Positions 36,001 to 39,000 of a stretch of DNA of 64,000 nucleotides are shown here, piece by piece. This DNA comes from Candidatus Cloacimonadales bacterium (GTDB lineage: Bacteria > Cloacimonadota > Cloacimonadia > Cloacimonadales > JAFGVF01): assembly GCA_963677495.2 (NCBI GenBank), contig CAXXOU010000002.1, positions 310,624-374,623 on the forward strand. Reading direction: 5' to 3'. Each line of letters starts with the position of its first letter. Positions within the stretch are counted from its first letter, which is position 1. The position numbers were made by a program.

Positions 36001-39000
36001 TCTGAATCTCTGATACTTTCAACTTTGTCTCTTTTTCATAAGCATTTACACATTTATGCTCTGCACCATGATATTGGAATACTCTATTAATATCTTTGAG
36101 CTTGCTGATTATCAATAAATAGATAACAAAGAATGTGATTCTTACAACACCGGCTGCAAGATTAAAGTACACGTTCTGTTTAGAGAGATTCACCCAGTCA
36201 GCGATCTTATAGGGGAGTACACCAAAGAGAAGAAAGGCTAAGCCTAAAGATATGGCATAACTAAAGAACTCACCAACTTTCTCTCCGGTTGCTGATTTCT
36301 TCTTTTTATTCTCTTCCTGGTTGTCCAGTTCCCAACGGTTAGCTGAAAAAGTCAAAGTTCCAATTCCAATCTTCATCATCTCTATTAATGAGATAAAGCC
36401 ACGAATCATTGGTAATCCTAAGAACTTATTCTTTTGTGTAATGCTTTTGAATGGTTGCACCTTAAGCTCAATAGCTCCACTTGCTCTTCTTATAGCGGTC
36501 GCAATCTTTTCAGGACCACGCATCATAACGCCTTCTATTACGGCCTGTCCACCAACTGCAATACTCTTTTTATCTTTGCTCATAAAGTCTCCGTATATAG
36601 TCAAAAATCGAGTAATGAATCTTTATTACTCGATAGAATTAAAAAAAGCATCACATTGCTACCAGTGTGATGCTCTTTCTGTTATAAAAGCTATTTTTTA
36701 GTCTGTCTGTTATATTTCTTATTGAACTTTTCAACACGACCCGCAGTATCAAGAAGCTTTTCTTTTCCTGTATAGAAAGGGTGACACTGGTCACAAATAT
36801 CAACTGTGAGATTCTTTCTGGTTGAAGCTGTCTCAAACTCATTTCCACAAGCACACTTCACAGTGATTTTCTCATATTTAGGATGAATACCTTGTTTCAT
36901 TTTATGTCTCCTGTTATTATAATCTTCACTTTGTTGGACATATTTTTTCTCAATGGCTTGAATGTCAATTCTTTTCTTAAATTTACTGCTACTCAATCAG
37001 TTTATTGTCTTTTTTGCCTTTTATCATCTATCTAAACTATGCGACTACATTATATATTTAATCGGATCTTTATAGAAGACACAATCAATTCTTACAGTCT
37101 TAGCTGAGATAGCTCCCAAACTTAACCATCAATCAAAACACAGTCAACGCACTGTTTCCCCACTGTGCACGCACTGTGCACCCGGTGAAACAGTGGGTTG
37201 GCAGTGCCTTCACAGTGCGTGCACAGTGCAGACACAGTGCGATGGTGGATAGAACAGTAAAAGAGAGTAAAAAGGGCAATAAATATAGCTAAGTTATTGA
37301 AAAACTCACTGTGTATGTCAATTTCGTACTTGCGTTGCAGCGATAGCGTGACGCGAGAGCGAAATCAGGGAATTGCGACTTCGGAGTGCATTTTAGAAAG
37401 TCCGTTGCCTTATTCGGCCGACAAACTCCCTAAAACACGCTAAGTTATTGCAAATGCCACTGTTTGTCACCCTGAGCGGGAAGAACGCAATGAAATGAAG
37501 TAAACGGAGTCGAAACGAGGACTATCGGAAGGAACTTGAAAGCTGACAGACTCATCAACTTTCGGGGCAAGCGGATATTTTTGGGGACTTCATATATTGT
37601 AGTGACTTGTTTAAAAAGTATCTCACATTATCCCTTGACTTATAGAAAACAGCATACATTTCTACCTTGACCGCATTTTAAAAACAAGGTGGAGATTATG
37701 AAAAAGATAATTAAGCTGATCTTTGCACTAACTCTATTCTGCTTGCTACTCCATGGAGTTAGTAGGTTGAACTACCAGGTAAGTCCTATTGAGTGTAACA
37801 TGTGCGGTCGCTGTATGAATAGTTGTCCAAATAATGCTATAGTTCCTGATCCTGAGCTGATGTGTATGCGCATTGATCAAAGCTTATGCGATGGATGTGG
37901 GAGTTGCGTGTCAGATTGCCCTCGGGGAGCTTTTTATGCGATAGATGGACGATCATTTATCTTTGGTAGAATTACTAACACAGAAACAAATTTTGCCATT
38001 AGTGGAGTGACAGTATCAAATGGAACAGATACTGTTGTTACTGATAGATACGGTGAGTACAGTTTTACTGTTACACAAGGAAGTTATACAATTACAGCAA
38101 CTTCTCCAAACTTTGATTCAGTAGTCATTAATGATATTACACTCGGAGCTGATGATGCAAATAGGTTAAACATAAATATGTCACCTACAACTTCCAATGC
38201 AGAGCATGATGTTGCCGAATTAAACAGTATAAGATGCTTTCCAAATCCTTGTGGGGAAGATGTAATGTTGAAGATTGAGTTTGGTGGTTATTCAGATTCA
38301 TTACTAATGGTAAGTAATATTAAGGGACAGATTGTTTTGAAAACTCGTATCAATGGGAGCTTCGAGTGGGATTGGAAAGATACGAATGGACATAAATTGC
38401 CATCAGGAATATACTTTGTGAATATTTATGATGGTAGGATTGCATGTACTAGAAAAATATTGTTAAAATAGAGGGTTATATGAAGTATAAAATATTGGTG
38501 CTAGCTATTATTATTACAACAGCATTAGGAGCGTTCGAAACACTCTTAAAGCTACCGGAAAGTGTAGTGTATATTGAAGAGATGAATGCTTTTCTGAGCT
38601 CAAATAAGAGCGGAGGAGCAATAATCAAATCTGATATGGAAGGTAAAGAAACTGTTTTCAATCAGGATCTTATATCAGTCCGAGGAATTACTAGATTAGA
38701 TTCTTTACTATATTGTGCTGCAGATGGGGGAGTTTTTGGTATAAGCCTAAACTCAGGTAAACTGGAAGTCCAAATCCCTATACCTGATACAGGCTTTTTA
38801 AATGACATTGCCTGGGATGGAAAAGATTATCTTTATGTCTCTGATATGAAGAAAGATAATATAATTAGAATAGATCTTCGTAGTAGATACAATATGATTT
38901 TTGCAGGTACAATCGAGAGTCCCAATGGCTTGTATTATGATCGGGAGAAAGAAGAGTTGATTGTTGTTTGCAATATCAAGAAATCCCCAATAGTTTCTGT

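Follow-up and report, generated by a model that had tools for sequence, protein, structure and literature searches.

A predicted cell-surface ferredoxin of Cloacimonadota and a candidate cytochrome-free electron path across the cell envelope

Background

NapG, DsrO, NrfC and HybA are periplasmic ferredoxin-like electron carriers that are exported by the Tat system. The prevailing view is that Fe-S proteins depend on Tat for export because their clusters are inserted in the cytoplasm; we know of no extracytoplasmic Fe-S assembly pathway and, to our knowledge, there is no route that loads Fe-S clusters after Sec export. The known members of the 2x[4Fe-4S] ferredoxins of the clostridial type (solved examples being the MvhB, RnfB and HydB domains) are either cytoplasmic or Tat-exported in the folded state. 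In porin-cytochrome conduits of the MtrCAB type the cofactor is haem and the barrel, MtrB, has 26 strands. The type-A cargo of type IX secretion systems (T9SS), such as gingipains, PorZ, hydrolases and adhesins, carries a Sec signal and a C-terminal sorting domain (TIGR04183/PF18962) and can be released instead of anchored.

Here we analyze a gene from a Candidatus Cloacimonadales bacterium, located in a window (the whole stretch of DNA that was analyzed) of 64,000 nucleotides, whose product, P0001, partly resembles each of these systems. The ferredoxin domain of P0001 is similar to the clostridial type in its motifs, its length of about 55 residues and the beta-alpha-beta-beta-alpha-beta order of its model, but lies between a putative Sec signal and a T9SS sorting domain. 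In these two terminal elements, and in the presence of SprA and PorU in the genome, P0001 is like type-A cargo, from which it differs in being a redox cofactor protein. The likeness to NapG, DsrO, NrfC and HybA would consist in Fe-S proteins of the ferredoxin type in an electron chain beyond the cytoplasm, with a NapH/MauN-like partner encoded beside the associated operon in several relatives; here, however, no twin-arginine signal, TatA or TatC is found, and the Cloacimonadota proteins are small single dicluster units that are predicted to be lipidated or T9SS-sorted and have no known quinone-linked or catalytic partner. As in the MtrCAB-type conduits, the genes of small exported redox proteins adjoin that of a predicted outer-membrane barrel, a surface redox protein is predicted and transfer across the envelope is proposed, but the cofactor would be Fe-S rather than haem, the barrel is predicted to have 20 strands and we found no sequence relation; P0001 and its partners may be likened to such a conduit in working but not in membership. 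The matches listed for a literature search on type IX secretion and ferredoxin include no ferredoxin cargo, and a search for secreted, exported or extracellular bacterial ferredoxins of this kind, confined to literature outside the subscription journals, turned up none.

Results and discussion

A predicted T9SS cargo with a dicluster ferredoxin domain

The open reading frame of P0001 runs from an ATG at 37698 to a TAG at 38469-38471 on the forward strand. The features of the gene and its immediate surroundings are as follows.

37687..37695, + strand: Shine-Dalgarno-like word AAGGTGGAG, from sequence reading; 2 nt separate it from the ATG
37698..38471, + strand: whole gene of the predicted secreted ferredoxin long form P0001 (g00991), 257 aa, stop codon within the range
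37698..37760, + strand: Sec-type signal peptide, residues 1-21 (MKKIIK n-region, 12-residue hydrophobic core, HG|VS; judged by eye)
37773..37940, + strand: dicluster 2x[4Fe-4S] ferredoxin domain, residues 26-81 (Fer4 profile, PDB sequence matches, model)
37794..37829, + strand: cluster motif 1, C33-x2-C36-x2-C39-x3-C43-P44, from sequence reading
37887..37922, + strand: cluster motif 2, C64-x2-C67-x2-C70-x3-C74-P75, from sequence reading
37959..38180, + strand: CarboxypepD_reg (transthyretin-like, Ig-like) domain, residues 88-161 (PF13620)
38181..38237, + strand: low-confidence linker, residues 162-180 (pLDDT below 50 for residues 168-173)
38238..38468, + strand: type-A T9SS C-terminal sorting domain, residues 181-257 (PF18962, TIGR04183)
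38480..39283, + strand: SMP-30/gluconolactonase-like (SGL) beta-propeller, 267 aa, hydrophobic N-terminus (PF08450, 34 bits), after an 8-nt gap downstream of the P0001 gene

An earlier note on this DNA had described the protein as consisting of a Sec signal, a dicluster ferredoxin, a CarboxypepD_reg domain and a T9SS sorting domain, with two CxxCxxCxxxCP motifs; we recovered all four parts with all the scores, and the motifs span C33-P44 and C64-P75. The ferredoxin domain is recognized by several Pfam profiles (Fer4, 49.8 bits, cut-off 21.1; Fer4_9, 34.2, cut-off 27; Fer4_7, 32.5, cut-off 27; Fer4_10, 31.4, cut-off 25.5), and its PDB sequence matches are the dicluster domains of MvhB, RnfB and HydB. 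It opens with Y-Q-V-S-P where most relatives have Y-Q-I-N-P. In the AlphaFold2 model of P0001 (mean pLDDT 89.9), this domain adopts the ferredoxin-like order of strands and helices with pLDDT of 87-93, and residues 2-21 form a helix. The putative signal, which has KK but no RR at the N-terminus, contains neither a twin arginine nor a lipobox, and its layout is common to all long and short forms in the alignments described below.

A Foldseek search with the whole protein is dominated by the Ig-like domains and did not match the small ferredoxin domain separately. The CarboxypepD_reg domain (Pfam PF13620, 48.6 bits, cut-off 32.3) matches 5aq0_B (TM-score to the target 0.88, rmsd 1.3 A over 80 columns) and is probably a spacer or stalk. 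The sorting domain is identified by Por_Secre_tail of Pfam (PF18962, 29.3 bits, cut-off 27, residues 181-254) and by TIGR04183 of NCBIfam (32.5 bits, cut-off 23, residues 181-256 of 257, that is, at the extreme C-terminus); it is a beta-sandwich in the model, with Foldseek matches that include PorZ (5m11) and PorU (6za2). Together, these two domains make up a C-terminal cassette that the phylum uses in many of its large cargo proteins.

The pair of the ferredoxin and SGL propeller genes recurs in two other loci, both of the same genus (L013 and L014), and is absent from a locus of another family (L015). Neighbors of the P0001 gene at the genus level are the SGL propeller and PNPOx-like and FMN reductase flavoproteins; given that they are not kept in another family, we claim no functional link for them. 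A promoter and terminator scan near the gene did no better than chance (10 promoter-like sites where 8.3 were expected; no terminators), and an Rfam scan of positions 36500-40500 yielded only sub-threshold miRNA-like matches on a hairpin. The stretch was found in four sequencing runs, all from one sample of one study, with no RNA run listed.

Long and short forms of the T9SS ferredoxin

A homologue search found a single close relative of P0001, the orthologue P0002 (260 aa, 53% identical; genome G001, which is G011 of the earlier note), and a phmmer search over 1.84 billion representatives again returned eight further full-length proteins of 249-266 aa that are 29-42% identical to P0001, as the note had reported. 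Its tally of the strict motifs in these nine relatives (both in five, one in three, none in one) is right as a count, but the variation of the motifs among the ten long forms is confined to the trailing Pro, and all eight ligand Cys are invariant in 10/10 sequences at 26-54% identity. To speak of a "small unnamed family" with the same four parts was too narrow: P0001 belongs to one branch of a wider family of Cloacimonadota T9SS ferredoxins, and is tied to a conserved operon of other exported ferredoxins. The sister of the long form is a "short form" of about 180 aa that comprises only the signal, the ferredoxin and the sorting domain.

In an alignment of 24 long and short forms, the four Cys of motif 1 as well as C64, C70 and C74 are invariant (24/24), and the position of C67 is occupied by Asp in three members (P0013, P0018 and P0024), which is the sole ligand substitution. 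A Cys-to-Asp change at the second position of motif 2 is known from 3Fe-4S and Asp-ligated 4Fe-4S ferredoxins. The resulting odd number of Cys, with Asp as the substitute, fits metal ligation and not paired disulfides. The conservation of the ligands makes the case for a true cluster-binding ferredoxin domain stronger than it was in the earlier note. Every family member begins with a basic and then hydrophobic N-terminus, and Y-Q-I-N-P..C comes within the next 0-5 residues. A sorting domain closes the proteins and is retained in the 23 full-length members of the alignment (all except the truncated P0019).

Outside Cloacimonadota (14/17 loci from a profile search of genome contigs), the seven loci that were opened, from Latescibacterota, Saprospiraceae, Melioribacteraceae, Bacteroidaceae, Ruminococcus and a deltaproteobacterium, were rejected as they encode ordinary cytoplasmic or NapH-like Fe-S proteins.

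Export machinery and Fe-S assembly in the genome

The genome that encodes P0001 contains SprA (431 bits, cut-off 200), PorU (615.8 bits, cut-off 420) and at least 150 six-frame Por_Secre_tail matches, in agreement with the PorU, Sov/SprA and numerous sorting-domain proteins reported previously. TIGR03517 (GldM, of the GldLM/PorLM motor) has no match in this genome and is silent in the 14 control genomes too. Neither TatC (PF00902) nor TatA (PF02416) is matched in the genome, which is 99.46% complete, with 11/14 controls positive; among 61 relatives, TatC is present in only two, neither of which bears the genes discussed here. In line with the statement that the organism lacks cytochromes c, there is no match to the cytochrome c maturation profile PF01578, and none of the 9421 six-frame ORFs contains two or more CxxCH motifs. 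For Fe-S assembly, only a cytoplasmic NifS/IscU pair was found in the genome, and SufBD was not. By gene content, the organism is a fermentative anaerobe with Rnf and many cytoplasmic Fe-S enzymes.

A conserved operon of predicted exported ferredoxins with a predicted barrel

Elsewhere in the same genome, six genes that we denote A, B, D, E, F and G stand in a row at G000:C1:708459-712645.

A and B: two larger exported ferredoxin proteins
D: ferredoxin with a Sec signal
E: lipoprotein ferredoxin
F: predicted 20-strand outer-membrane barrel without a plug
G: DsbD_2 inner-membrane protein

This operon contains no short form, and the long-form gene of P0001 is not linked to it. In relatives, the short T9SS ferredoxin is located inside the operon, between A/B and D, in 7 of 27 loci, and D and E both adjoin G or F in 18/27. 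The eight Cys of D are kept in 18/18 sequences; E has the lipobox Cys in 18/18 complete N-termini and its cluster Cys in 18/19, the remaining sequence having Asp. Mature D and E are very small, at about 60 residues, a size that should allow simple biochemical tests. Among 201 sampled Cloacimonadota genomes, the short form occurs in 15, the long form in 11 and both in none, and the short form is missing from all six operon loci with D and E in long-form genomes. The two forms are thus complementary. What ties the long form to the operon is this complementarity, seen among related, non-independent genomes.

The E gene tightly overlaps the start of the F gene. The model of F consists of a signal helix and 20 strands (mean pLDDT 86); it is most similar to the barrels of TonB-dependent transporters (BtuB, TM-score to the query 0.53-0.55), OprD/Occ porins and the FimD usher, has neither a plug of its own nor a TonB box, and is predicted to be an open, empty barrel. 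The C-terminal residue is Phe or Tyr in 11/13 orthologues. A lipoprotein gene overlapping the gene of a barrel that is predicted to be empty is reminiscent of the LptD-LptE-type pairs, to which there is no homology. G is a LysE-superfamily protein, named "sulfite exporter TauE/SafE" in the sources, and, instead of carrying electrons, could transport a metal or an anion. It is present in 25 of the 26 genomes with a T9SS ferredoxin versus 56 of the other 175. Conversely, 56 of the 81 G-bearing genomes have no T9SS ferredoxin, suggesting either that the surface module is dispensable or that the large lipoproteins replace it. Neither F nor G has a match in NCBIfam.

A distant relative of NapH/MauN (66.6 bits, under the cut-off of 213) is encoded beside the operon in 7/27 loci; the NapH-like gene of the P0001 genome stands alone. 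The operon encodes carriers, a barrel and membrane proteins only, with no catalytic subunit. A DPD-like 830-aa oxidoreductase that adjoins it in one genome (G047) was considered as an electron-input module and dropped: in another genome (G026), G adjoins xanthine-dehydrogenase-like and DPD-like genes, the exported ferredoxins are absent, and the DPD-like gene is grouped with the xanthine-dehydrogenase genes, so the adjacency in G047 is probably inherited synteny.

A tentative model and its alternatives

We propose, at roughly even chances of being correct, that P0001 is the surface module of a ferredoxin-based electron path across the envelope. In an organism devoid of Tat, P0001 would cross the inner membrane unfolded through Sec and would be cleaved by signal peptidase I, leaving a mature N-terminus a few residues ahead of the ferredoxin fold. 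The type-A sorting domain would then direct it through the SprA translocon, and PorU would cut this domain off, such that the ferredoxin would become surface-attached or be released, with the Ig-like CarboxypepD_reg domain as its stalk. Exported ferredoxins would form a chain that needs no cytochromes, with P0001 as its outermost link and the products of the A-G operon as the remainder. Low-potential electrons could travel along such a chain through the envelope, with an outside partner or a mineral as either their source or their destination, in the mode of a porin-cytochrome conduit with Fe-S clusters replacing haem. Cluster formation would need to follow export; Fe2+ and sulfide might self-assemble in an anoxic, sulfidic habitat, and G might supply reductant or metal.

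In its broadest form, which we put forward as a possibility and hold more loosely, the proposal is that many Cloacimonadota lack Tat, export [4Fe-4S] ferredoxins through Sec, assemble them outside the cytoplasm and string them into a haem-free, envelope-spanning "ferredoxin wire". The order would be a DsbD_2 or NapH-like inner-membrane protein, the lipoprotein and periplasmic ferredoxins, the 20-strand barrel and finally the T9SS surface ferredoxin, with g00991 as the surface terminal on its Ig-like stalk.

The same genes might instead, although we consider this unlikely, serve iron or Fe-S traffic: the exported ferredoxin-like proteins would capture Fe2+, sulfide or preformed aqueous FeS clusters outside the cell and pass them inward, or would buffer or detoxify iron and sulfur in the envelope. 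A series running from the surface protein through the barrel F to the periplasmic D and lipoprotein E, and on to the permease-like G, would be akin to the Isd haem relay, and we infer from the set of a surface binder, a barrel, a periplasmic binder, a lipoprotein and a permease the layout of an uptake relay. Sec-exported apo-ferredoxins would be ready cluster acceptors, and the superfamily of G, with its exporter annotation, is rich in metal and anion transporters. Use of a ferredoxin as an iron source also has a reported precedent in the Fus system of Pectobacterium (PMC6793856). What speaks for electron transfer instead is that the operon has no TonB-dependent receptor, ABC transporter or protease, that F has no plug or TonB box, that NapH-like redox proteins adjoin the operon in several genomes, and that a set of four to five paralogous dicluster domains, each with all its ligands and with the CP motifs conserved, is typical of electron carriers.

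Quite unlikely, in our estimate, is that there is no extracellular Fe-S cluster at all and that the domain binds another metal (e.g. Zn) or nothing, acting as a small rigid unit within an adhesin or another surface protein, with structural Cys. The absence of a known loading route after Sec export and the lack of Tat are compatible with this, as is the loss of the trailing Pro of the motifs in several members. Against it, five paralogous exported families across the phylum preserve eight Cys with precisely the spacing of a ferredoxin, and Cys-to-Asp at one ligand position is the only substitution; furthermore, the short form amounts to little beyond a ferredoxin with a linker and so offers no further functional domain.

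More improbable still is a role as a redox sentinel or a scavenger of oxygen or oxidants, with low-potential, oxygen-labile clusters on the surface and in the periplasm that protect or inform a strict anaerobe and form no through-conduit. [4Fe-4S] clusters are indeed oxygen-labile, the organism is a fermentative anaerobe by gene content, and the PNPOx-like and FMN reductase flavoproteins are genus-level gene neighbors, but such a role would leave unexplained the conserved barrel, the tight overlap of E and F and the complementarity of the long and short forms, and the operon contains no regulator or signaling domain. Finally, it is hardly credible that the hydrophobic N-terminus is a membrane anchor by which the ferredoxin, like RnfB, stays cytoplasmic (the RnfB of the same genome is likewise hydrophobic at the N-terminus), and that the sorting-domain match, only 2.3 bits above the Pfam cut-off, is due to chance or decay, considering the three Lys ahead of the hydrophobic core of P0001, which indicate the Sec orientation and are lacking in RnfB, the TIGR04183 score 9.5 bits above its cut-off, the sorting domain in all 23 full-length members with a confident beta-sandwich in the model, and the sister genes with lipoboxes next to a barrel gene.

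Implications

In a whole clade without Tat, the ligand residues are kept under strong constraint in no fewer than five families of ferredoxins targeted through Sec, as lipoproteins or to the T9SS. Fermentation and possibly syntrophy have been inferred as the way of life of Cloacimonadota in anoxic lakes and anaerobic digesters (PMC7382037, PMC8542988). Current genome screens for extracellular electron transfer seek multihaem cytochromes and conductive pili (PMC7382037); a haem-free conduit would escape such screens. If the clusters are real, Fe-S assembly would not be confined to the cytoplasm and might proceed spontaneously where water is sulfidic and rich in iron, ferredoxins could take the place of cytochromes in exchanging electrons with partners or minerals, and the T9SS would acquire a new class of cargo. 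Should the envelope-spanning chain as a whole prove true, it would represent a new kind of machinery for extracellular electron transfer and the first bacterial example of Fe-S clusters being assembled beyond the cytoplasm.

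The predicted T9SS ferredoxin g00991 and an operon of putative exported ferredoxins

The reading frame of the ferredoxin gene proposed in the earlier note is real, and its 257 residues can be read directly from the sequence:

37698..38471, +, g00991, ATG start with AAGGTGGAG just upstream, 257 residues

The architecture assigned to this protein, namely a putative signal peptide followed by a ferredoxin, a CarboxypepD_reg and a T9SS sorting domain, was reproduced with the same Pfam scores, each over the cut-off (Fer4, 49.8 bits; CarboxypepD_reg, residues 88-161, 48.6 bits; Por_Secre_tail, residues 181-254, 29.3 bits), and TIGR04183, the NCBIfam model of type-A sorting domains, matches with 32.5 bits (cut-off 23). 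These sequence tests place g00991 in the Fer4 clan and among the T9SS type-A cargo proteins. The cluster motifs span C33-P44 and C64-P75. The N-terminus, MKKIIKLIFALTLFCLLLHG, contains three lysines and a hydrophobic core of 12 residues, and neither a twin arginine nor a lipobox was seen in it (here, as for all proteins discussed below, signal peptides were assigned by eye).

Comparison of the first domain with PDB sequences returned only dicluster ferredoxin domains (MvhB, RnfB, HydB, [FeFe]-hydrogenase). In a confident AlphaFold2 model built from 24 family sequences (mean pLDDT 89.9), the signal helix precedes a beta-alpha-beta-beta-alpha-beta unit, which is followed by an Ig-like domain; a floppy linker then leads to a C-terminal beta-sandwich. 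In a Foldseek search, the middle domain aligned with the transthyretin-like portion of carboxypeptidase D (5aq0_B; rmsd 1.3 A, TM-score to target 0.88), and PorZ and PorU are also among the matches of the model.

Two repeat features lie near the gene. A long imperfect hairpin with repeated GCACTGTG-like words is located between rpmE and g00991 (37147..37242); its - strand folds with -64.8 kcal/mol (z -5.9; 0/200 shuffles as good), and Rfam produced only sub-threshold miRNA-like matches, on both strands. A tandem array with a 97-nt period (39288..39772 and 40297..40490), detected by a repeat finder as four overlapping 194-nt copies, or about five units, of 81-100% identity, with one more copy downstream (63%), flanks an ORF for an IS200-like Y1 transposase (39681..40355; PF01797, 33.6 bits) and, together with it, may represent a REP/RAYT-like arrangement. 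The transposase insertion parts an SGL gene from a PNPOx gene that adjoin in congeners.

Long and short forms of the family

A phmmer search over 1.84 billion representatives retrieved again the eight full-length relatives of g00991, and the 53%-identical orthologue, P0002 from a congener, was likewise recovered. The earlier tally of strict cluster motifs (both in five proteins, one in three, none in one) is correct, and the differences consist solely in loss of the trailing proline: the eight ligand cysteines are invariant in an alignment of all 10 long forms, at 26-54% identity. These sequence comparisons support a genuine, strongly constrained dicluster ferredoxin fold combined with predicted Sec and T9SS signals, in a clade for which Tat export is no option.

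The description of a small family that keeps all four parts holds for these long forms and is too narrow for the family as a whole. The same search yielded about 12 proteins of 174-201 aa that match residues ~2-83 at equal positions and comprise a signal peptide, a Y-Q-I-N-P..C ferredoxin and a T9SS sorting domain, the Ig-like domain being missing. Across both forms (n=24), seven cysteines are invariant and the eighth, C67, is replaced in three sequences, solely by Asp, the variant known at this ligand position from 3Fe-4S and Asp-ligated 4Fe-4S ferredoxins; the Y-x-I-N start resembles the N-terminus of clostridial ferredoxins. In a maximum-likelihood tree of 29 sequences, one branch separates the long from the short forms with moderate support (84/85). 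Given that the Ig-like and sorting domains (residues 84-259 of the long form) recur C-terminally in numerous large cargo ORFs across the phylum, the long form gives the impression of a ferredoxin fused to a widespread cargo cassette.

An operon of predicted exported ferredoxins

The genome of this member of the Cloacimonadales (Cloacimonadota; 3.41 Mb, 4 contigs, 99.46% complete) encodes SprA (431 bits) and PorU (615.8 bits), and sorting domains were matched in it at least 150 times, six-frame HMM counts varying with the thresholds used; GldM had no match, and the control genomes were equally silent. TatC and TatA were not found in it, with positive controls in 11 of 14 genomes, and TatC was found in only two of 61 relatives (G048, G059), both devoid of ferredoxin-operon and T9SS-ferredoxin genes. 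The cytochrome c assembly family PF01578 had no match in the genome, and a search of its 9421 six-frame ORFs for two or more CxxCH motifs was negative. Defining features of Tat substrates, sought in g00991 and its genome, and those of porin-cytochrome systems, sought in the genome, were not found; g00991 is neither a Tat substrate nor part of a porin-cytochrome system.

Thirty ORFs of this genome carry two ferredoxin motifs, and in seven of them the N-terminus is strongly hydrophobic. These are g00991, RnfB, a DUF362-ferredoxin, a NapH-like protein and three adjoining genes of contig C1. The last belong to an operon that lies outside the window and encodes four predicted exported ferredoxin proteins along with F and G.

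Genes of the exported-ferredoxin operon (G000:C1:708459-712645; locus L030 6459..10645)
A, 181 aa: signal, unknown ~100-aa domain, ferredoxin
B, 343 aa: lipoprotein signal, FN3, ferredoxin
D, 82 aa: signal, ferredoxin
E, ~80 aa: lipoprotein signal, ferredoxin
F, 402 aa after signal start: no family match
G, 323 aa: DsbD_2 membrane protein (PF13386, 70 bits)

The end of E overlaps the start of F. The model of F (mean pLDDT 86) shows a signal helix and then 20 beta-strands, a predicted outer-membrane barrel; the closest folds are TonB-dependent transporter barrels, OprD/Occ porins and the FimD usher, but F itself has no plug domain. The terminal residue is Phe or Tyr in 11 of 13 F orthologues. 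Porin-like proteins are also the ESM-Atlas neighbors of F, which we treat as a lead only.

Two further Fe-S proteins of this genome deserve mention. About 8 kb from the operon, a 354-aa protein combining DUF362 (132 bits) with a dicluster Fer4 (G000:C1:719981-721045, -; locus L059 485..1546) has a hydrophobic, lipoprotein-like N-terminus, MKMFITIVVLLLLVVLCAKS, and looks exported. A NapH/MauN-like membrane Fe-S protein is encoded alone between genes for a LexA-like repressor and glmS (G000:C4:230604-231386; locus L057 6605..7387); its relatives adjoin the ferredoxin operon in other genomes.

We compared 27 operon loci from relatives and the genome itself. D and E both adjoin F or G in 18 of these. 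The eight cysteines are kept in all 18 D sequences, the lipobox cysteine is present in all 18 complete N-termini of E, and the cluster ligands of E are all cysteines in 18 of 19 sequences, with one Asp variant. In several loci, B is replaced by large lipoproteins (700-1050 aa) with a ferredoxin domain; in five, BLAST did not recognize F, and the E-G gap there is ~1.1 kb. Seven of the 27 loci contain C, the short T9SS ferredoxin, between A/B and D, and a distant NapH/MauN relative (66.6 bits, under the family cut-off) adjoins the operon in seven.

In one genus, G adjoins an 830-aa dihydropyrimidine-dehydrogenase-like Fe-S flavoprotein (L046 (G026:C3) 2471..9819; L034 8840..11332), and in G026 also xanthine-dehydrogenase-family genes, exported ferredoxins being absent there. 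A Saprospiraceae MAG (L024 4019..6416) encodes a NapH-like membrane Fe-S protein directly followed by a 469-aa protein whose ...RYAF ending resembles those of outer-membrane proteins, which hints at NapH-like/barrel pairs outside Cloacimonadota.

Possible replacement of the operon's T9SS ferredoxin by the long form

The genome and congener G001 share the order A-B-D-E-F-G, with no space for C, which is also absent from the four other long-form genomes with a readable operon (G012, G024, G036 and G040); in G031, G046 and G050, G alone was found in the fetched stretch. The short form occurs in 13, the long form in 10 and both in none of 61 close relatives, and the respective numbers for 201 genomes across the phylum are 15, 11 and none, all counts coming from kin genomes and not from independent events. 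G is present in 81 of the 201 genomes, and of the 26 that carry a T9SS ferredoxin, 25 have it; G030, which lacks it, has the operon with a NapH-like protein. The mutual exclusion of the two forms, the C-less operons of long-form genomes and the co-occurrence with G suggest that the long form substitutes for the operon's own T9SS ferredoxin. This comparison supports a tie between g00991 and predicted ferredoxins of the periplasm, the membrane face (lipoproteins) and the surface, an empty-looking 20-strand barrel and a DsbD-superfamily inner-membrane protein.

A tentative model and its alternatives

No catalytic subunit is encoded in the operon, which favors a pure carrier chain. Such a chain would be a heme-free analogue of porin-cytochrome conduits, with g00991 as the surface terminal, kept off the cell by its Ig-like domain; the short form would be a bare ferredoxin on a linker of ~10 residues. 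We give this model about an even chance. Its weak step is cluster insertion after Sec export, for which the caveat of the earlier note stands: the only scaffold found is cytoplasmic, a single NifS-IscU pair, and a search for SufBD in the genome was negative. Clostridial ferredoxins reconstitute chemically. In an anoxic, sulfidic setting, clusters might self-assemble from Fe2+ and sulfide, and G might supply reductant or metal.

The main rival, in which the same parts relay Fe or FeS into the cell, fits the transporter-like family of G and its source name; we consider it improbable, if worth keeping in mind. A redox sentinel and a cluster-free structural module are lesser alternatives, as is mis-annotation, against which the conservation of the sorting domain, the lipoboxes and the barrel speak.

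In the open-access literature searched, we found no description of a secreted or T9SS-sorted ferredoxin or of this operon. One study mentions the possible presence of T9SS in Cloacimonadota and says no more on it (PMC11285876). Another screens for extracellular electron transfer via multiheme cytochromes and pili (PMC7382037); a screen of this type would overlook a ferredoxin-based system.
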